Assembly (NCBI GenBank): GCA_947085185.1 | Contig: CAMTVK010000005.1 | Coordinates: 1 to 64,000 of the forward strand | Source: Candidatus Fraserbacteria bacterium | Lineage (GTDB): Bacteria; Bipolaricaulota; Bipolaricaulia; RBG-16-55-9; DRXL01 | Reading direction: 5' to 3' | DNA: 64,000 nucleotides | Part shown: positions 52,670-62,321 of the stretch, one piece after another | Layout of the letters: every line of letters begins with the position of its first letter | Numbering within the stretch: position 1 is the first letter of the stretch | The notes under the pieces: generated by a model | What the model was told of the DNA's origin: nothing | Seen by the model: only the letters and a program-made list of their open reading frames with translations | Databases searched by the model: none | Position numbers and translations under genes: made by a program

Positions 52670-52850
52670 CGAAGCTGGCCCACTCTCTTCACGTAAGGGG
52701 CTTGGTGTCTCTCGCAGAGGGAGAAGTCTCGAAGGCTTCTCTCACGGATGGGAGGGTTTTGCCTCTCTGGGGGCTGCCTGACCTCCTCCCCACCGAGAGG
52801 ATTTTTCCTTGCCAGCCGGCACTGCGCCAGGAACCAAGCCCCACCTTCCT
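52670..52850 (+). ncRNA. Candidate 6S RNA (SsrS-like)
   Basis: TACAAT at 52658-63; terminal stem GGGGCTTGGT/ACCAAGCCCC, inner stem GGGAG../..CCCACC, CGGCAC near the 3' end; about 180 nt. Confidence 0.5.
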
Positions 52851-52915
52851 TCTTCGGAGGGATTGACGCTCGGGTCCCTATCCCCTACAATAGCTCTGAT
52901 GCAGAGGGGGGACTC

Positions 52916-53848
52916 ATGCGAAGAGTTCGAGCCTGCCCACGCTGGGGTGTGCTCCTCGGCTTGATGCTGATGGGTGTGCCCTGGCTTATCGGGACAGCTC
53001 AGGGCTGCTCGGTCCAGTCCTATGTCGACGGTCGTTGCTCCGCGGAGCTTGCTCTGTCAACACGGGTGAGAGAAGATCATCGTGTGACAGAATCTGGGGG
53101 AAGTTTGCTGATCGCTCTTGCGACGCTGCAGCGCGAGCCGGAGCACGCCTCTCAGATGCTCTCTTCTCCTCCGCCGTTGGTGGGCATCTCCTATCTGACT
53201 ATCCAGCGACTCATGCTGGCTCCGCCCGAAGAAAGATCCGTCGAGTCGCAGATGATCTGGGATTTCGGGCGCGTGGCGCAGCTGGAAGCGCGCCTGCGCA
53301 ACATAGACGCGATCATGCGCGCACTCCTTGAAGAATTCTTTCAATCTCACGGCTCTCTCTTGCAGAACCGCGAGCTGACGGTGCTCATCAACGTTGACGG
53401 CTTGGGGCTCTTCTTGCCTGCCCAAATTGAGAGCCTCAGCAGCTTCGCGCTCGACGAACGGCTCCATCTCTCCTTGAGTCGCGCGACCATCACCTTGCGC
53501 ATGGCCACCGGCTTTGGCAGCGTGATGGGCCAGATCGAACTCGATCCCAAAGACTTCGAGATCAGTAAAGAGAGAGTCGGGATTGAGCTGGCGCTCGGCT
53601 CGACTTCGCTGTCGGGGATCACGACGTTCGAGCAAGGGGTTGGCTTGATCAGCCAGGTGTATTCTATCAAAGCTCAAGTGGGGGACGTCGAGCTCGTGGG
53701 CCAGGCAGTGTTCACGTCCACCTCCCAAGAGTTCACGATCGGCATGAGCATCGCGGGGATAGCGCTCTCGGGGAGCTCGCTCATCACCCCCAGCAGCTTC
53801 ACGCAGAGCTTGCTCATTGAGATTCCCATCATGGTGAGAAAGAAATAG
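52916..53848 (+). CDS. Exported hypothetical protein with a beta-strand-rich C-terminus
   Basis: Promoter TTGACG-17-TACAAT (52863-91), SD GAGGGG, signal-peptide-like N-terminus. Confidence 0.6.
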   Translation: MRRVRACPRWGVLLGLMLMGVPWLIGTAQGCSVQSYVDGRCSAELALSTRVREDHRVTESGGSLLIALATLQREPEHASQMLSSPPPLVGISYLTIQRLMLAPPEERSVESQMIWDFGRVAQLEARLRNIDAIMRALLEEFFQSHGSLLQNRELTVLINVDGLGLFLPAQIESLSSFALDERLHLSLSRATITLRMATGFGSVMGQIELDPKDFEISKERVGIELALGSTSLSGITTFEQGVGLISQVYSIKAQVGDVELVGQAVFTSTSQEFTIGMSIAGIALSGSSLITPSSFTQSLLIEIPIMVRKK

Positions 53849-53851
53849 CTC

Positions 53852-54646
53852 TTAGCTGAGCCGACGCACCGCGGTCCAAAAGTCTGAGCTGATGCCAATG
53901 AGTTTTGTCGGCTGAGCAGACTTACGAATCTGCACGGTTTGGTTCAGGGTGAGCGTGCCCACGGGATCGCCGTCGGCGAGCAACGACGCCGGACGCTTGG
54001 CAACAGCCGTCAAGAGACTATCACTGGGCAGCACAAGCGGGCGCGCACCCAACCGATGCGGCGCCAACGGCACGACTAAAAGACACTCCATCGTCGGCTC
54101 GATGATCGGGCCCCCGGCGGAGAGCGCATACGCTGTCGCTCCCGTTGGTGTAGCAATAAGCACTCCATCGCCGGGGTAGCACCCGATGGCTTCTGCTCCC
54201 AAAAAAAGCTCGATCTCCGTGCGCCGGCTGATCTCGGTATGCACGAGCCCAATCTCATTGAGCGCTGTGCAGGGCGGCGCTTCCACCCCGACAGCTTCGA
54301 TCCTCATGCGCCTCTCAAGAGTAAAGTTATCTGTGAGCACTTGCTCGAGTGCTCTTTCGAGCTCATCTATCCCGACCGATGTCAGAAATCCTAAGCTCCC
54401 CAAGTTGATCCCTATAATGGGCAGATCGAGCTCGGCGGCCGTTTTGGCTCCCTTGAGAAGAGTTCCGTCTCCGCCCAGCGTCACGACCAGATCACAATCT
54501 CTCTCTTCCACAGGACTCTTGTCAATGCCGGATCGTACTGCAATGGAGATGCTTTTCGCAGTCGTCCATTGTCTCAAACGTTCTAACGCAGCGTCGATCT
54601 GGGGCTTGGCGAAGTTCGCTATCACTAAGATCTTTCGCAGCTTCAT
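53852..54646 (-). CDS. nadK: NAD(+) kinase
   Basis: LGGDGT, GINLGSLGFL, NE and DG..ATPTGATAYALSAGGP motifs. Confidence 0.95.
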   Translation of the reverse strand: MKLRKILVIANFAKPQIDAALERLRQWTTAKSISIAVRSGIDKSPVEERDCDLVVTLGGDGTLLKGAKTAAELDLPIIGINLGSLGFLTSVGIDELERALEQVLTDNFTLERRMRIEAVGVEAPPCTALNEIGLVHTEISRRTEIELFLGAEAIGCYPGDGVLIATPTGATAYALSAGGPIIEPTMECLLVVPLAPHRLGARPLVLPSDSLLTAVAKRPASLLADGDPVGTLTLNQTVQIRKSAQPTKLIGISSDFWTAVRRLS

Positions 54647-55416
54647 ACGTACTGCCAGCGGCAGATCCAGCGCTCCAAGAGATCAATAATAATATAGAAC
54701 GCCAACCCCAACATGCCCATGGCTAAGATCCCCGCGAACATATGTTCATAGTTCCAATAGCGCGACCATTGGTCATAGATATAGCGCCAGAGCCCATAGC
54801 GCGACGCGAACGCTTCTGTTAAGGCTAGAGCCATGATGGCCATACCAATGGAGATTCTCAGTGCGGAGAACATGGCGGGGAGGCTCGCCGGCAGGATCAC
54901 GTGCTTATAGACATGCCATGTGCTCGCCCCGGCGCTCACTACCGAGAGCACGTAGCTCTTGGGAATATTTTTAGCTGCGTCTCGGGTGGACAACAGGAGC
55001 TGGAAGACCAGAACGAGCGTGATCAGCCCGATCTTGGGGGCATCGTAGATCCCCAAGAAGACGAAGAGCAACGGCAGAAAGACGACCTTCGGGATAGGAT
55101 ATGTCAAATAGATCGAAGGGCTCAGCAGACGATCTAAGACGCGTTCATGCCCGATGACCAATCCCAAGGGCACAGCGATGACTATCGCCAACAGCAACCC
55201 ACTGAGGACGCGGTAGCCACTGGCGAAGAAGTGCGGGACCAAGCTGTGCCACTCGATGATCAAGATACTGAGCGCTCGTATCGGTGGCGGCACGGCTCCT
55301 TGGAGCGGCTTGCCTGCAAACAACGTCGAGACGCACCAGCTCGCCAGCCACCACACCCCAAAGAAGAGCACGATCCCCAGCACATAGCCCACAAGATAAT
55401 GCTGAAGGCGCTTCAT
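54643..55416 (-). CDS. ABC importer permease (SsuC/TauC-like)
   Basis: PIPKVVFLP, EAA-like loop (SAGAS..HVILPASLP), ALRISIG. Confidence 0.9.
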   Translation of the reverse strand: MKRLQHYLVGYVLGIVLFFGVWWLASWCVSTLFAGKPLQGAVPPPIRALSILIIEWHSLVPHFFASGYRVLSGLLLAIVIAVPLGLVIGHERVLDRLLSPSIYLTYPIPKVVFLPLLFVFLGIYDAPKIGLITLVLVFQLLLSTRDAAKNIPKSYVLSVVSAGASTWHVYKHVILPASLPAMFSALRISIGMAIMALALTEAFASRYGLWRYIYDQWSRYWNYEHMFAGILAMGMLGLAFYIIIDLLERWICRWQYV

Positions 55417-56537
55417 GACAGCTCCCGTCGCAGCTCTAAGACTTTCACATAGAACGCTTCGCTGGTGCGCGATGTCCCCACGCACGGGTTCTCGAGAATC
55501 GCTTTGATGCGCGCCGGGCGCTCCGTGAGCACCACGATTCGAGACCCTAAAAAGACCGCTTCTTGGACGTCATGGGTGACGATAATCTGGGTGAAGCCGC
55601 GCTCTTTCCATAATTGAAAGAGCAGATCTTGGATGCGCTCGCGGTTGAACGCATCGAGCGCTGCTAACGGTTCGTCCATCAATAAGACTTTGGGGTGTGT
55701 GGCAAGGGCTCGTGCCAACGCGACGCGCTGGCGCTCCCCGCCCGAGAGCTGATGGGGATAGCGATCGTAGAATTTGCTGTCAAGCCCAAGCTCGTCAAGG
55801 ATGGGTTTGACACTCTGGACTTGCTGGAGGATCAGAGCGTTGGCCTCGCGGATCTGTCGCGGCATGGTGAAGAGATCATAGACGAGTCGGCTGATCAGTT
55901 CTGCAGTCAGCATAAGCACGATGACAAATAAGGCAACCTGGGGCCAGCCCCCGCCCCACAGCACCTCGCTCCAGGTGGCCTCCGCATTGACCGTGATGAT
56001 CTTGTGAACTTCGCTCCAGTAGAAGCCCCCCGCGATGAGATCCAACCCCAACGCCACAAGATAGACGGCAGCTGAAAAAGGGCGATCGAGGTAGAAGCGC
56101 TGACCCGCAGCCCACGCCCCCGTTACCAGTAGCCAAAAATATGCCCAAAAGAGCGATTTCTTGCGACGGCGCCACTCTTGCTTCAGCGACTCATCTTCAG
56201 GGAGCTCCAGCGCATCTCGCGGAGGCGGACCCCCAAGCTCAAGCAAGAGACTCGCATTCTTCCAGACGGTCTTCCACGGCAAGAGCCCCAAATCTTGAAA
56301 GATGAGCGCGACGTCGCGGCGCGGCCGCTCCACCAGTTGACCGTCTACGATCACGCGGCCTGCGCTCGGTTTCACCAGCCCACAGATCGCATAGAGCAAA
56401 CTGGTCTTGCCGCACCCTGACGGCCCCAGGATCGCGACGCTCTCCCCAGCTCTGATAGAGAGATGCAGATCGTCCACAACTGGGACAACACGGTGGCCAT
56501 CGCGATACTCTAACCGCAGCCCATCGATGCGGATCAT
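55413..56537 (-). CDS. ABC importer ATP-binding protein (SsuB/TauB-like) with an internal TM2-like membrane insertion
   Basis: GPSGCGKT, FQD..LLPWKTV, LSGGERQR, MDEP and VTHD motifs; hydrophobic insertion at ~aa 106-237. Confidence 0.85.
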   Translation of the reverse strand: MIRIDGLRLEYRDGHRVVPVVDDLHLSIRAGESVAILGPSGCGKTSLLYAICGLVKPSAGRVIVDGQLVERPRRDVALIFQDLGLLPWKTVWKNASLLLELGGPPPRDALELPEDESLKQEWRRRKKSLFWAYFWLLVTGAWAAGQRFYLDRPFSAAVYLVALGLDLIAGGFYWSEVHKIITVNAEATWSEVLWGGGWPQVALFVIVLMLTAELISRLVYDLFTMPRQIREANALILQQVQSVKPILDELGLDSKFYDRYPHQLSGGERQRVALARALATHPKVLLMDEPLAALDAFNRERIQDLLFQLWKERGFTQIIVTHDVQEAVFLGSRIVVLTERPARIKAILENPCVGTSRTSEAFYVKVLELRRELS

Positions 56538-57608
56538 CTATCCGAGAAAGCGAAAGTCGGTCACCGCAGCGAACACGAGCTTTTCGCGAATGTAGCGCTT
56601 CTCCAGAGCCCAAGTGACATGGGCGTCGAACTCGTCGGCGCGGAGGGCTCGCGGCTGTGGGAAGTACGGCACACGCAGACGATCACGCCAGCCCTCAGGG
56701 AATTTGAGCTCTTGCCCGCGCAGCTCCGGGAAGCAGATGTTGACCCCGGCGCGAATGATCGTGTCAATGATAAAATCGCGCGAGCTGGCGTTGAGCGTGT
56801 TGACGGATTCTTTGAGGGCTTGGAAGAACTTGCGCACGCGCTCGCCGCGCTCTTGGAGCAGCTGACGCGAGAAGAGCACCACGCTCGGCGGGATGCGCAC
56901 CCCCTTATAATCCGAGAGCGTGATGATCTCGACGTTGTTTGCTTGGGCAACGACTTCAGTGAGCGTCGCGTGGGGTTCAGGCAAGATCGCCACTTGGACG
57001 CTGACTGTGCCCGCGCCGAGCATCTGTGCGATCAGCTGAATCTTGTCAAAGTCCTCTACGCCCGTGTAGTACTGATCGATATCGCGCGGTCTGACGCCCT
57101 TGGACTGCAAGAGCACATCCGTGAGATATTCCATATCGGAGGGTTGCACCAGCGTGATCTGGCGCTTCGGGCCGCTCTTGATGACGTCTTCTACAGAGCG
57201 ATAGCCGCTGAATTTGTGGGTGAGCATCGCCACGGTGCGCACGATTTGATTGCCGGTACGCGGGTCTGGGGTGGGCTCAAAGACCGTTCCGCTGATGGCT
57301 GCTGGGGCCTGGCGGCCCAGCAAGAGCACCGCGCTTGTTAAGTCTACCGCAAGCCCATCGAGCTGTCCTCCCAGAAATGCTGTATTGCGTTCGAGGGCGT
57401 TGCCGCCGCAGACCAGCTCTATAGTGACCCCGTGTTTGTTAAAAATCCCTTGCTCGAAGGCAAAAGCCAGTGGGACCGCGTCCTGGGCGGGCATCATGCT
57501 GAAACGGATGGGCTTGGTTTGCTGCGCCGGTGCCTTGCCTATGAAGAGACCAGCAAGTGCCATCCCGCTCGACACGAGAAAAGCTCTACGGCTCATCGGT
57601 CTTTTCAT
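56538..57608 (-). CDS. ABC substrate-binding protein (SsuA/NMT1-like) with a Tat signal
   Basis: MKRPMSRRAFL Tat motif; PLAFAFEQGIF..G; GGQLDG; LPEP. Confidence 0.85.
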   Translation of the reverse strand: MKRPMSRRAFLVSSGMALAGLFIGKAPAQQTKPIRFSMMPAQDAVPLAFAFEQGIFNKHGVTIELVCGGNALERNTAFLGGQLDGLAVDLTSAVLLLGRQAPAAISGTVFEPTPDPRTGNQIVRTVAMLTHKFSGYRSVEDVIKSGPKRQITLVQPSDMEYLTDVLLQSKGVRPRDIDQYYTGVEDFDKIQLIAQMLGAGTVSVQVAILPEPHATLTEVVAQANNVEIITLSDYKGVRIPPSVVLFSRQLLQERGERVRKFFQALKESVNTLNASSRDFIIDTIIRAGVNICFPELRGQELKFPEGWRDRLRVPYFPQPRALRADEFDAHVTWALEKRYIREKLVFAAVTDFRFLG

Positions 57609-57680: not shown

Positions 57681-59642
57681 CTAGCGCCCCTGAAATTGGG
57701 GTTTCTTCTTGCTCAAGAACGCATTGACCCCTTCGAGCATGTCGTCGGTAGTGAAGAGCACCCCAAACGCCTCGCGCTCCAACAGCAGGGCTGCTTCGAG
57801 GGAGCAGTCCGCTCCAGCGTTGATGATCTGTTTGATGAAGCGCACGGCGATGGGCGCACGAGACGCTAATTTTTCAGCGAACGCTGCGACTTGTTGCTCA
57901 AAAGTCTCGTTGTCGTAGACGTGATCGATCAAGCCCCACTGAGCGGCTTGCTCCGCGCTGATGCGCTCCCCGAGCATACAGAGCTCCTTGGCGCGCGAAG
58001 GGCCCAGTATACGAAGCAGGCGCTGGGTGCCCCCCCCACCGGGGATCAACCCCAACTGAATCTCAGGTTGGCCGACTTCGCTGCGCTTGCTCGCCAGGCG
58101 AAAATCGCACGCTAACGCAAGCTCTAAGCCTCCGCCCAGCGCAAACCCGTCTATCGCAGCGATGACCGGTTTTGGGCAGAGTTCGGGTGCCCTGAAGAAT
58201 TCCCCCAGCTCTACAAATTGATAGGGCTTCCCTTGGGTGAACTCTGCAATATCCGCGCCGGCGCTGAACGCTTTGCCGCCCTCCCCCTTAAGCACGATCA
58301 CCCGCACGTCAGGATGATCGCGAAGCTCCATGAAGACTTGAGGCAGCTCCTTGCGCATCTCAGCGTTGATCGCGTTCAGCTTCTCGGGACGATTGAGCGT
58401 CACATACGCCACGTAAGTCTTCTTGTCAATCTCGACCTTGAGAGTCTTATACTCTTTGCGCTCTTTCTTGTACTGATAGAATCCTTCGCCTGCAGCCTCG
58501 CCGGTCTTGCCAGACTGGACCATCTGTTTGAGGAGATTGTTGACCTGGTAGCGTGGGTCTTTGTGGTGCGCGTAGAGGCGCTCGAGCTCGTTGACGAGCT
58601 TGTCTAAGCCGATTCTATCAGCGCGGCGCAGCAGCCCTTCGGGGAAGTTCAGTCCCAACTGACATGCTACGTCTATCTGCTCGGCCGTAGAGACACGGTT
58701 TTCAATCAACCATGCGGCTTCGTTGACCATGAGCGCATAGAGCGGCAGGGGGTTGAACTTGGCCCCCGCCTCACGGGAGTAAGTGGCGCCGCCATCGGCG
58801 TAATTGTAAAACCCGCGCCCGGTTTTGCGGCCCAGACGCCCCTCTTTCACTGCTTGTTCGATCACCGGAGGGATGGGCAGCCCAGCCTCTTTCATCAGAT
58901 TATAGCCGACGTCAATGCCCGTCAGGTCTTGCAGCTCGAACGGGCCCATGGGGAAGTTCTCGTAGAATTTCATCCGGCTGTCAATTTCTTCGATGGTTGC
59001 TTCGCCGCGCGAGACGAGCCAGCCCGCCTCGAAGAGATAGGGGCCAACCAACACTCTATTGACGATAAACCCGCGCACGTCCTTCTCGACGCGAATCGGG
59101 GTCTTGCCTAATCTCTTGGCCAGTTCAACGATGAGCTCCATCGTCTCTTCGGAGGTCTTCTCCCCCTTGATCACCTCGACGAGGGCCATGCGCACGACCG
59201 GGTTGAAGAAGTGCATGCCCACGACTTTATCTGGTCGCTTGGTCGCCCGGCCCAACTCGGAGATGCTCAACGAACTCGTGTTGCTGGCAAGAATAGTATG
59301 AGATGGCGAGAGCGTGTCTATCTCTCTGAAGATCGCGAGCTTTAAGCTCATGATCTCCGGGACAGCCTCAATGACGATATCTGCGTCAGAGACAGCTTCT
59401 TTCAAGTCTACAAGAGGGGTGATCAACTTGAGGGCTGCGTCGGCTTTTTGTGGGGAGATGGTGCCCTTTTCTGCGAGCTTTTTGAGGCTCCAGCTGATCT
59501 GATCGTAGCCCTTTCTCACGAGCTCTTCGCTGATGTCGCGCATCTTGACGGTATAGCCCGCCAGGGCGGCGACTTCAGCGATGCCGTGCCCCATCGTGCT
59601 TGCGCCGAGCACCGCAATAGTCTTCACATCCGTGATCTTCAT
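57681..59642 (-). CDS. Bifunctional 3-hydroxyacyl-CoA dehydrogenase / enoyl-CoA hydratase (dehydrogenase N-terminal)
   Basis: EAVPE, SNTSS, GMHFFNP and GFIVNR motifs; crotonase motifs FSAGADI, GGGLE and PEIQLGLIPGGGGTQR. Confidence 0.92.
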   Translation of the reverse strand: MKITDVKTIAVLGASTMGHGIAEVAALAGYTVKMRDISEELVRKGYDQISWSLKKLAEKGTISPQKADAALKLITPLVDLKEAVSDADIVIEAVPEIMSLKLAIFREIDTLSPSHTILASNTSSLSISELGRATKRPDKVVGMHFFNPVVRMALVEVIKGEKTSEETMELIVELAKRLGKTPIRVEKDVRGFIVNRVLVGPYLFEAGWLVSRGEATIEEIDSRMKFYENFPMGPFELQDLTGIDVGYNLMKEAGLPIPPVIEQAVKEGRLGRKTGRGFYNYADGGATYSREAGAKFNPLPLYALMVNEAAWLIENRVSTAEQIDVACQLGLNFPEGLLRRADRIGLDKLVNELERLYAHHKDPRYQVNNLLKQMVQSGKTGEAAGEGFYQYKKERKEYKTLKVEIDKKTYVAYVTLNRPEKLNAINAEMRKELPQVFMELRDHPDVRVIVLKGEGGKAFSAGADIAEFTQGKPYQFVELGEFFRAPELCPKPVIAAIDGFALGGGLELALACDFRLASKRSEVGQPEIQLGLIPGGGGTQRLLRILGPSRAKELCMLGERISAEQAAQWGLIDHVYDNETFEQQVAAFAEKLASRAPIAVRFIKQIINAGADCSLEAALLLEREAFGVLFTTDDMLEGVNAFLSKKKPQFQGR

Positions 59643-59702
59643 AGCCCCAATCACCTCAGTTATGATAACGCACAGGTGGGGCAAGGTGCAAAACGCTGAG
59701 CC

Positions 59703-60266
59703 TCAGAAGCGTCGCTCCAAGAGCGTGAGCTTATATGTCAGCGCAAGCTCTTGGGGGATCGTCGCGCCGATGTTGTAGCCGAGCGTCGCTCCCAAGGCGG
59801 CCATCGTCACCGGGTTGACCACGAGCGAAAGATCTGTCGGCTCGATCACCCAATTGCCTGCGACCGCGGCTCCAAAGAGAGTCCCCACGATGCTTCCCGC
59901 AAAAGCGAGCAGCAGATTGCCCTGCACCCCTACGATCGCCCCTGCTAATGAGACTCCAAGAAACGTCGCCCCTGGAGGGATACCCAAATGAGGTCCAACG
60001 ATGAGAGAGATGAGCGAGGTTCCCAGCTGGCAGGCGCGTCGCTCTGGCTGGATCGGCGGGCACGGTTGCACTATCGAGAGCGTCCAATACGTGACGTAGA
60101 AGCCGAGCCCGGCCCCCACAAGAGCCCCCTGTACCCCAAAGAGAAATTCAAGAAAGATATAATCCGTCGGCTGCACCGGGCGCTCGGCGCGAGCCTCTGC
60201 TGAGATCGAAAACAGAGTGAGCGCAATCACAAGGACGCACGCGAGCGCTTTTTTAGAAGAGATCAT
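59703..60266 (-). CDS. Hypothetical Gly-rich membrane protein with a signal peptide
   Basis: Signal peptide, GxxxG helices, C-terminal Phe. Confidence 0.6.
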   Translation of the reverse strand: MISSKKALACVLVIALTLFSISAEARAERPVQPTDYIFLEFLFGVQGALVGAGLGFYVTYWTLSIVQPCPPIQPERRACQLGTSLISLIVGPHLGIPPGATFLGVSLAGAIVGVQGNLLLAFAGSIVGTLFGAAVAGNWVIEPTDLSLVVNPVTMAALGATLGYNIGATIPQELALTYKLTLLERRF

Positions 60267-61374
60267 AGTTTGCTGTGATCGTCAAGCCCTGGGTCCATTC
60301 TTCAAAGTCGCTAGCGCGGGTAAATTCTAATTGTACAGCGAGGTTGAGATTGGCTTGCACTTGGAACGTCAGGAGCAGCTCGATATTTTGAATATCTAAG
60401 GAACTACGGTTTTTGATCTGGGTGCGCACGAAGTTATAAGACGCTTGAGCGTCGATGCTCTCGCTGATCCGGAACGAGTAGTTCGCCTGGGCGAGCAGCA
60501 CGTAGTCTGCTAACAGATCCAGCGACGAGCTGAAGCGCAAGCTGCTGCGAAACTGCGAGCGCGGCGCTGGGGCAAGCGCGTACTCAAACGACGTGAGCGT
60601 CAGCCAGTCGCGCGGTCCTCCTTGTGGGTCAAGTAATTCATAGCCCATTCCCAGGCGCAGCTCCCAGCCGCACAGCTTCTCGTCGGCTGTTTCGTTGAGA
60701 ATCTCTTCGATGCGCAGAAGTGCGATGGCCCCGAGTTGTCCCTGGGGGACAAACCCGCTCGACTCGATGATCTCCTCCAAGCGTTGTACTAGACTAGCAA
60801 GATCAAGAAATTCGAGACGGCGCCCGATAGTATCCGCGAGCTCAAAGAGCACAGCTGGGGGCAAGGGCGCGGAGAGCGCCTTCAGCGATACTAAGCGCTC
60901 TTGGATCTTGAGGGCTTTGGAGAGCGCCGTGACGTCTTTGAAGCGCCCGTACCCTAAGCCCGCGAGCGCGCGCACCCCAGGGCTGATGAGCGTCGTGGAC
61001 CCTTGGGCTTCTGCGCCGATGAACCCGAAGAAGTTCGTCTGCCCAAGATACGCCCGCAGGTTCATGGCGCCGTCGGCCTGATAGCTGAGCGTGTCTTTGG
61101 TTAAGTCGAGTTTGAGATGGGCTTGCTGAGAGAGCCCAAACGCGGGTGCATCGAGCAGGCGCGCAAAAGACGCCCTCAAGCTCCCGGAATTCACGTTCTC
61201 ACGATCGTCTTTGAACTGATCGTTATAATAGCGATAGTGCGCAGAAAGCTTGAGATCGCGGAACTCACTGCGTGGCGGCGTATACCCGCATAAGGGGCCC
61301 ACACGAGGTTGTCCAACGGCAGACCCGTTGCTGAAGAGAACAAAGACCGTCAGAACCCATACGAATTTTTTCAT
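60253..61374 (-). CDS. Exported protein, possible outer-membrane beta-barrel
   Basis: Signal peptide, alternating amphipathic strands, C-terminal ANYDLF. Confidence 0.6.
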   Translation of the reverse strand: MKKFVWVLTVFVLFSNGSAVGQPRVGPLCGYTPPRSEFRDLKLSAHYRYYNDQFKDDRENVNSGSLRASFARLLDAPAFGLSQQAHLKLDLTKDTLSYQADGAMNLRAYLGQTNFFGFIGAEAQGSTTLISPGVRALAGLGYGRFKDVTALSKALKIQERLVSLKALSAPLPPAVLFELADTIGRRLEFLDLASLVQRLEEIIESSGFVPQGQLGAIALLRIEEILNETADEKLCGWELRLGMGYELLDPQGGPRDWLTLTSFEYALAPAPRSQFRSSLRFSSSLDLLADYVLLAQANYSFRISESIDAQASYNFVRTQIKNRSSLDIQNIELLLTFQVQANLNLAVQLEFTRASDFEEWTQGLTITANYDLF

Positions 61375-61454
61375 AAAAGCATTGTACTCTGTCGGGTGCG
61401 GGGAATGTCAAGTTTCTGGACAGGAAGCTTTTCGTTTGGTAAATTGAGCACAGC

Positions 61455-62321
61455 ATGCGCGCACGATTCTTTATCGTTGGCGTGGTGGTCTCTGTGTGTG
61501 GTGGAGGTGTGTTGGGCTGGCTGTGGTGGGCGTGGCAGTCAGGGGCGCCCCCGCAAGCACCATCTCTGCCGCCGGTGCCTTCTGTATCTGATACTCCTAC
61601 TCCGCCACCCCTACCTGCACCGTCGGATGAGCCCCAAAAGATTGTCAACAGAGTCATTGACAGCGGGACGCTCTTCATTGAGGCCCGCGGGCAGCGCCTC
61701 GGCACAGAAGAATATAGTATCTCCTACAACGAACGCGGAGAGATCGTGCTGCGTTCCAGGGGAACGCTTACGGTGAAGATCGCGCTCCTGAGCGCTCAAG
61801 CTACGTTCATTCAGGCAATGACATGGACAGCTCAGCGTCGCCCGATCAGCTATGAGCTGGCACTCCATGGTCCCCTTGGGATCGGCAACCGCAGTGTGAG
61901 CGCGCGCTTTGGCTCAACGACGGGTATAGTCAGCGATGGCGAACGCCAAACCGAGATCGCCCTCCCGAAAGAGCCGTTCTTGCTAGTGGGAATGTTCAGT
62001 TCGTATGCGATCCTGCCCCTGTGGGCTCAGCCGGACACTGCTCAGAAACTCAAAGTGATCGATCTTCGCGGGGAGCGTCGCGCTCGAGAGAATTGGGTAT
62101 CTCTTGAGCATATCGGTCTTGTCCAACTGAGCGAGGGGGGTTTTGCTCTCAGGGCGCACGAATATCTGCTCAAGGGCGAGCAGGGGACGCTGAAGCTCTA
62201 CGTTGATGGTGAGCGTCTCTTGGCATTGCAGGCCGACACAGCCGAGCGCGACCGAAGCTTTCGCATCTCTCGTAGTGATCTCTTCCCCAAAGGGTTTGAC
62301 GTGCTTCCCCATCAAAACTAG
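61455..62321 (+). CDS. Membrane-anchored hypothetical beta-rich protein
   Basis: TM helix, Pro-rich linker, beta-rich domain (GQRLGTEEYSI). Confidence 0.65.
   Translation: MRARFFIVGVVVSVCGGGVLGWLWWAWQSGAPPQAPSLPPVPSVSDTPTPPPLPAPSDEPQKIVNRVIDSGTLFIEARGQRLGTEEYSISYNERGEIVLRSRGTLTVKIALLSAQATFIQAMTWTAQRRPISYELALHGPLGIGNRSVSARFGSTTGIVSDGERQTEIALPKEPFLLVGMFSSYAILPLWAQPDTAQKLKVIDLRGERRARENWVSLEHIGLVQLSEGGFALRAHEYLLKGEQGTLKLYVDGERLLALQADTAERDRSFRISRSDLFPKGFDVLPHQN

Follow-up and report, generated by a model that had tools for sequence, protein, structure and literature searches.

The importer-type ATP-binding cassette (ABC) ATPase described here carries a TM2-type membrane-protein module inside its nucleotide-binding domain (NBD), and this insert is real and conserved, being neither an artefact nor specific to one strain. 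The gene lies in a 64,000-nucleotide stretch from a Candidatus Fraserbacteria bacterium (assembly GCA_947085185.1, contig CAMTVK010000005.1, positions 1 to 64,000), hereafter called the window. No description of a membrane module nested in a transporter NBD was found in the literature searched, and the TM2-in-NBD importer ATPase apparently is, as a preliminary description of this DNA had proposed, an undescribed variant, with an origin that can be traced. The positions of the ATPase, its parts and its neighbours are given in Table 1.

Table 1. Window positions of the insert-bearing ATPase gene, its parts and the adjoining genes
Feature	Window positions	Strand	Remarks
Substrate-binding protein, NMT1/SsuA-like	56538..57608	-	356 aa; Pfam NMT1_2 33.9 bits, above cut-off
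ABC ATPase (NitT/TauT type) with internal TM2-derived insert	55413..56537	-	374 aa; Pfam ABC_tran in two stretches
N-terminal NBD part, residues 1-102	56232..56537	-	Walker A 56403-56426, Q-loop, first helix of the helical subdomain
Pro-rich variable linker, residues 103-116	56190..56231	-	0/15 columns invariant; longer in some members
TM2-derived module, residues 117-238	55824..56189	-	whole small TM2 protein in frame (by profile matches); AlphaFold2 pLDDT 85
Segment 1, residues 128-148	56094..56156	-	broken Gly/aromatic helix ending GQRFYL; predicted re-entrant, cytoplasmic side
Predicted transmembrane helix A, residues 154-174 (in to out)	56016..56078	-	Kyte-Doolittle 1.79; within model helix 152-182
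Predicted outside loop with short amphipathic helix, residues 175-199	55941..56015	-	net acidic: 1 K/R, 3 D/E
Predicted transmembrane helix B, residues 200-222 (out to in)	55872..55940	-	Kyte-Doolittle 2.29; unbroken into NBD helix
C-terminal NBD part, residues 239-374	55416..55823	-	LSGGE 55734-55748, Walker B, D-loop, H-loop
Permease (BPD_transp_1)	54643..55416	-	257 aa, full length; Pfam 74.7 bits
NAD kinase	53852..54646	-	Pfam NAD_kinase and NAD_kinase_C; overlaps permease stop codon

RESULTS

An in-frame insert lies between the Q-loop and the signature motif

The ATPase was found to contain the complete motif set that had been claimed for it, namely Walker A (GPSGCGKT), Q-loop (FQDLGLLPW), signature (LSGGERQR), Walker B (LLMDEP) and H-loop (VTHD). 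The Q-loop, signature, Walker B, D-loop and H-loop were kept in 50 of 50 insert-bearing homologues and Walker A in 49, the exception being a protein cut at its N-terminus. The spacing from the PW of the Q-loop to LSGG was 177 residues, compared to 42-49 residues in the eight insert-free orthologues measured. Alignment to insert-free orthologues, which was unbroken over the N-terminal NBD part, placed the insert at approximately residues 103-238 (window 55824-56231), in a short loop of the helical subdomain between KNASL.L..G and the helix VKP.LDELGL, and these boundaries agree with the roughly 130 extra in-frame residues first noticed at 55827..56222. The PDB matches CmpD and NrtD covered residues 15-102 and 250-348 with a gap between them. 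Among the 36 ABC stretches from Walker A to signature in the genome, that of the insert-bearing ATPase was the only one with a hydrophobicity peak above 1.7. The NCBIfam scores were all under their cut-offs (TauB, 193 against 357 bits; SsuB, 165 against 395; NrtD, 178 against 292; SaoA, 169 against 360).

Contigs of runs X1 and X2, which come from one study that is possibly the source of the assembly, crossed both insert junctions with zero differences, and the interior of the insert was partly covered by a contig of run X5, from a different study. In run X6, one contig joined position 55751 to 56402; its short side consisted of 30 letters with 85% likeness. When the insert region was used as query, 49 protein clusters were retrieved, all of them full-length or near-full-length ABC ATPases of 329-403 aa. 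Close homologues carry source names that put the gene within Bipolaricaulota; among them, P0033 (BAL58615.1) from Ca. Acetothermum autotrophicum was 83% identical to the ATPase.

The insert is related to stand-alone TM2 proteins

Of the two Pfam families looked for, ABC_tran was found in the ATPase, whereas the TM2 score (PF05154) was 13.8-17.2 bits, below the gathering cut-off of 27.9 bits. No member of the host family reached this cut-off in a genome search, the best score being 26.1 bits, and a TM2 match at E up to 0.1 was obtained for 43 of 49 members (best, 1.9e-6). Although the Pfam score was sub-cut-off, the suspected TM2 resemblance was borne out as homology by profile searches. Against 1.84 billion representative proteins, a profile of the insert gave 14 matches, two of which were this fusion and 12 of which were TM2 proteins, and all 12 scored above the Pfam TM2 cut-off. 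For the eight of these TM2 proteins tested, the insert-profile matches were 36-40 bits compared to at most 9.8 bits for 200 shuffles each. Conversely, a stand-alone TM2 profile matched residues 117-242 at 62.5 bits, this insert being the only TM2 match in the genome, and it matched 50 of 50 insert-bearing homologues at 44-69 bits. The hhalign comparison of insert and stand-alone TM2 gave 99.45% over 100 columns, a value that is partly circular since the TM2 members had been found with the insert profile.

Small TM2 proteins aligned end to end with the insert through E..K.KKS, AY..L, FYL and YDLFTLP.QV.EAN. The residues RFYL were invariant in the insert and were preceded by Gln in 16 of the 18 genomes and by His in two (G073 and G074). 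The residues RPFS, which are specific to the fusion, were invariant in insert-bearing ATPases. An Atlas search with a homologue placed TM2 clusters at the top with scores of 0.77-0.79, which is taken as a lead only.

The insert-profile, hhalign and reciprocal-profile matches together indicate that a whole small TM2 protein was captured and that its C-terminal helix was spliced onto an NBD helix. No donor lineage could be named, the best stand-alone TM2 matches being only 23-39% identical. TM2 genes above cut-off occurred in nine of 166 other genomes of the phylum, and these were ruled out as close donors, as they scored at most 6.2 bits against the insert profile. The inserts had no match in PHROGs. 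A search for other TM2 fusions among longer proteins, which gives a weak negative, returned nothing beyond the ATPase fusion and two TM2 proteins of molluscs. An intein or intron was also considered and rejected, given the TM2 homology, the codon-level selection and the fact that none of the residues that mark the splice junctions of such elements was seen.

In family f4, TM2 proteins of approximately 250 aa (L040 and L042) consist of an N-terminal Cys/His-rich segment, a TM2 domain and more hydrophobic helices; they are unrelated to the subfamily of the insert.

The insert is confined to one family and is under purifying selection

The insert was present in 18 of 18 genomes of the host family, which spans three genera, so that it is not unique to one strain, and it was not found in 166 other genomes of the phylum with a single-protein query. 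Gene order was kept in all 18 insert loci, one contig (L011) ending before the binding-protein gene. Of 14 metagenome loci matched by the insert profile, 13 were the same operon; the other, L151, was discarded as spurious, the matched frame lying opposite another gene. For comparison, 20 of the 157 outside genomes with a binding-protein orthologue were sampled (families f2-f7 and f11, none from f8-f10), and all 20 had the same three genes with an ordinary insert-free ATPase of 242-259 aa.

In a tree of the 18 and the outside proteins built with the insert removed and rooted at the midpoint only, the insert-bearing ATPases formed one clade (support 100/98), and a quick permease tree agreed with a single insert clade (support 93). 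One insertion in the family ancestor with no loss since would be the simplest reading. Insert identity falls to approximately 37-53% across the three genera without any loss.

Rough dN/dS values were obtained from 14 genomes of the genus (91 pooled, non-independent pairs at dS of 1.1-1.4). They were highest in the linker (0.35), followed by the outside loop (0.21), the last helix (0.115), the TM2 module as a whole (approximately 0.11) and the TM2 core (0.079); the N-terminal and C-terminal NBD parts gave 0.096 and 0.048, respectively. The TM2 core, with 21 of 61 columns invariant, was thus comparable in dN/dS to the N-terminal NBD part, and in the C-terminal NBD part 68 of 136 columns were invariant among the 18 genomes. 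These codon comparisons indicate that the insert is under purifying selection. It is this selection, together with the occurrence in all genomes of the family and the single clade, that establishes the insert as neither artefact nor strain-specific.

Two side observations were made in these alignments. The most divergent insert-bearing ATPases (L018:1462-1926, L149, L150 and P0050) mostly keep the TM2 histidine (GHRFYL), and their outside loop is about 13-16 residues longer. Eleven of the 20 outside insert-free ATPases (L025 and L030-L039; families f6, f7 and f11) have the signature LSEG instead of LSGG; they appear to be homodimeric ATPases of the phylum-wide transporter.

Predicted membrane topology of the insert

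The preliminary description had counted about three hydrophobic segments. Two of them were strong on the Kyte-Doolittle scale (residues 154-172, 1.79; residues 201-219, 2.29), whereas the third, residues 128-146, which is preceded by RRRKK, was weak (0.98). The value of helix A barely exceeds the highest window in the soluble orthologues, 1.72. Helix B reached 1.9-2.3 in 15 of 18 genomes and was weaker (1.28-1.74) and Pro-containing in genus g3. The polar residues D165, E213 and R217 lie within insert helices, and the charges of the insert obey the positive-inside rule.

The AlphaFold2 model of the insert (pLDDT 85.3) had a broken first helix, a helix at 152-182, a short helix and a long helix at 197-240; in the full-length model (pLDDT 66.6, poor near the junctions) a helix ran continuously from 198 to 250. 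Foldseek, run with the insert model, found nothing in the PDB at E up to 0.001, and sequence searches found no TM2 structure there. Among viral structures, the closest was that of a phage V22 protein labelled 'transmembrane domain protein', with a TM-score of 0.80 over the target and E 0.29. A complex prediction of insert residues 112-242 with two permease copies scored 0.00, which is evidence neither way.

Because both insert ends are joined to a cytoplasmic domain, the number of crossings must be even; three full crossings are impossible and one segment must be re-entrant. We infer, as the best fit, a re-entrant segment 1 followed by an out-and-back hairpin with both ends cytoplasmic. Segment 1 would dip into the inner leaflet and return, and helices A and B would cross out and back. 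The predicted hairpin makes the membrane-tethered NBD that had been proposed likely. The extracytoplasmic sensing loop proposed with it fared less well. A loop is predicted outside, with W194 invariant, but a sensing role appears doubtful, as only two of 19 columns were invariant (residues 179-197), dN/dS was high and the length varied, with approximately 16 additional residues in G073. Within the insert, only the linker was less conserved.

The ATPase belongs to a compact operon with a complete permease

The genes for the binding protein, ATPase, permease and NAD kinase were tightly packed, with start and stop codons abutting or overlapping. The binding-protein stop codon abuts the ATPase start codon, and the permease ATG overlaps the ATPase stop codon. 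Also borne out was the earlier reading of the operon as intact, with a permease and a binding protein of Tat type. The binding-protein leader reads as twin-arginine-type (SRRAFL), and TIGR01409 matched one of 26 binding-protein members. SsuA matches of the binding protein were all sub-cut-off, and its profile gave only two weak partial matches in the PDB (3qsl and 2x7p). The leaders look twin-arginine-like in families f1-f5 and f7 and of Sec type in f6 and f11 (L001-L039), a distribution which indicates that Tat-type export predates the insert and is not coupled to it. A scan for promoters and terminators gave chance level only.

The permease aligned end to end with 15 permeases of insert-free operons; no segment was missing and no compensating change was obvious. 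The idea that the insert substitutes for a lost permease helix was ruled out, the permease being full length.

The NAD kinase gene adjoins the permease gene in 18 of the 20 outside genomes sampled and in 11 of 13 metagenome operons, the remaining two contigs ending earlier. A binding-protein orthologue was found in 174 of 184 genomes of the phylum, mostly as a single match. The unit of binding protein, ATPase, permease and NAD kinase (53852-57608; L020-L039) is near-universal in the phylum and appears to be a core transporter. Its near-universal occurrence, usually with a single match in a genome, and its association with NAD kinase give a hint of a cofactor precursor as substrate; that this is a small nitrogen-heterocycle compound, such as an NAD precursor, is a guess made with low confidence.

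Other genes near the operon were noted in passing. A 366-aa open reading frame (ORF) without Pfam match (52748-53848, plus strand) is convergent on the NAD kinase gene and keeps its position in relatives; its alternating Gly/hydrophobic strands suggest a beta-barrel. Directly upstream of the operon (57681-59684, minus strand) lies a gene for 3-hydroxyacyl-CoA dehydrogenase with a C-terminal enoyl-CoA hydratase fusion, which keeps this position in close relatives. Three ORFs of 187, 373 and 288 aa without Pfam match occupy 59703-62321, and the 373-aa product has a signal-like N-terminus and a Phe at its C-terminal end, which we take to resemble the outer-membrane barrel pattern.

DISCUSSION

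A built-in anchor and accessory membrane subunit is favoured

With moderate confidence, we favour a reading in which the TM2 insert serves as an anchor and accessory membrane subunit built into the ATPase. Each transporter would have two of them, keeping the predicted membrane-integral ATPase on its permease. Going by MalK structures, the loop at the insertion site would face the membrane. The reading is favoured because the permease is full length and because, in type I importers, the NBDs are situated very near the membrane and a cleft at the helical subdomain receives the coupling helix (PMC3971661, PMC3150292). As the operon has one ATPase gene, the ATPase would form a homodimer, so that two hairpins would flank the permease dimer in each transporter. 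Helix B, being continuous with an NBD helix, would tie the hairpin rigidly to a subdomain that rotates upon ATP binding in type I importers (PMC3971661, PMC3150292). The hairpin would thereby act as an additional membrane subunit that keeps the motor on the permease and serves assembly, stability and coupling. Its contact would probably be with peripheral swapped helices, corresponding to TM1/TM6 in NrtB; in NrtBCD, TM1 and TM6 are swapped to the partner subunit (PMC10945777). With a full-length permease, the insert would add helices and replace none. Phylum orthologues without any anchor indicate that an anchor is not generally needed.

Membrane integration, ATP hydrolysis and permease contact of the ATPase are predicted. 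The purifying selection on the ATPase motifs gives indirect support to the predicted ATP hydrolysis coupled to uptake.

Alternative roles of the insert

The insert could instead be a regulatory or sensing module, in which the hairpin conveys directly to the helical subdomain a signal from outside, the docking of the binding protein, a lipid property or input from a partner protein, and gates ATP hydrolysis along a route additional to that of the coupling helix. The unbroken run of helix B into the NBD helix ahead of the signature motif would suit such a relay, as would the invariant W194 of the outside loop and a TM2 core that is more constrained than a plain greasy anchor should need. Against it, the outside loop is exceeded in variability only by the linker and differs in length, and the invariant residues gather at the predicted cytoplasmic face (GQRFYLDRPFS). 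The papers found gave neither a ligand nor a function for bacterial TM2 proteins, which is a weak negative. We consider a regulatory module unlikely. Only marginally less so is a class of ABC importers with a membrane-integral ATPase, in which the captured TM2 hairpin, rigidly tied to the rotating helical subdomain, opens a second path from outside, by binding-protein docking or signal, to ATP hydrolysis that is independent of the coupling helix. Such a path, if it existed, would give a bacterial TM2 domain a mechanistic role for the first time.

It is quite improbable that the insert is a tolerated passenger, that is, a TM2 gene that landed in a permissive loop and was kept because an essential transporter depends on its correct folding, or for TM2's own job, with no transport role. 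Helical subdomains do tolerate inserts, for example the ABCF Arm (10.1101/2023.06.15.543498), the outside orthologues sampled all lack one, and the genome has no other TM2 match. An in-frame deletion would, however, restore the ancestral gene, and no loss was seen in any of the 18 genomes of the three genera. Moreover, the replacement of the TM2 histidine mostly by glutamine and the invariance of RPFS suggest a new constraint.

The moderate hydrophobicity of segment 1 and helix A and the polar residues within the helices would also fit an insert that is not transmembrane at all, forming a cytoplasmic or surface-lying helical bundle on the NBD or the membrane surface. This is very unlikely in view of descent from a family annotated as membrane proteins (PMC8714088), the hydropathy of helix B in most genomes and a charge asymmetry that fits a hairpin. 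Finally, an assembly chimera or dead gene has practically no probability, since the single X6 contig joining 55751 to 56402 is the pattern expected of another organism's ordinary ABC ATPase, whereas the fusion recurs in 17 other genomes, 49 protein clusters and 13 metagenome loci, contigs cross both junctions and purifying selection is seen; the independent genomes refute a chimera.

Implications

Importer ATPases are taught as soluble proteins that touch the membrane only through the coupling helix of the permease, and the fusion would depart from this picture. Here, selection has maintained a membrane protein nested in a moving subdomain throughout a family. The donor family is identifiable, the event maps to a single branch and the insert-free orthologues in the same operon provide ready-made natural controls, so that what a membrane anchor does for the assembly and coupling of an NBD is directly testable. 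The fusion also constrains the poorly understood TM2 family: with both termini of the module necessarily in the cytoplasm, a re-entrant first helix is indicated in place of the annotated two-pass TM2 topology.

Comparison with known systems

The ATPase shares its NBD fold and motifs with NrtC/NrtD (PDB 8w9m and 8wm7), CmpC/CmpD (9ua1 and 9u9z) and E. coli TauB/SsuB. NrtC/D and CmpC/D are the closest solved folds, and NrtD, CmpD and TauB are nearest by sequence and fold. The operon is of the NitT/TauT importer type, with an NMT1/SsuA-like binding protein and a BPD_transp_1 permease. In contrast to the ATPase described here, the NBDs of NrtC/D, CmpC/D and TauB/SsuB have no insert between Q-loop and signature. 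NrtC/NrtD-type NBDs are cytosolic subunits (PMC10945777), and the soluble NBD of approximately 250 aa that is typical of NitT/TauT ATPases is here replaced by a longer protein with two predicted membrane helices. The insert-free Bipolaricaulota orthologues have the same gene order and roughly 50-60% identity over the NBD parts; they differ in having a loop of a few residues at the insertion site and, in many cases, the LSEG signature.

The insert shares the TM2 (PF05154) pattern E..K.KKS...AY..L...G..(A)H/Q.FYL ... YDLFTLP.QV.EAN with the TM2 proteins compared (P0056, P0057, P0060, P0062, Coprothermobacter L058, Dictyoglomus P0081 and animal TM2D1-3). Animal TM2 members act in Notch signalling, and annotation of the TM2D proteins puts their two termini outside the cell and the DRF loop inside (PMC8714088). 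The insert model agrees with this annotation on the motif location and differs on the ends, both of which would be cytoplasmic here. Unlike stand-alone TM2 proteins, the insert lies within an enzyme, to which both of its ends are joined; its outside loop is longer, and Gln mostly stands in place of His.

Soluble inserts in the helical subdomain of non-transport ABC proteins are known from the coiled coils of Rad50/SMC proteins, the chromodomain of eEF3 and the inserts of UvrA. In the ABCF Arm and toe a module is likewise nested in the helical subdomain with the ATPase motifs kept (10.1101/2023.06.15.543498); the ABCF inserts are soluble and belong to non-transport ABC proteins, whereas here a membrane hairpin is predicted in a transporter. 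The ABC exporters MsbA and Sav1866 are NBD-TMD fusions (PMC3971661), with the NBD covalently tied to membrane helices, as is predicted for the present ATPase. In these exporters, however, the transport domain is fused as a separate domain, whereas here an unrelated membrane protein lies inside the NBD and the permease is separate and complete.
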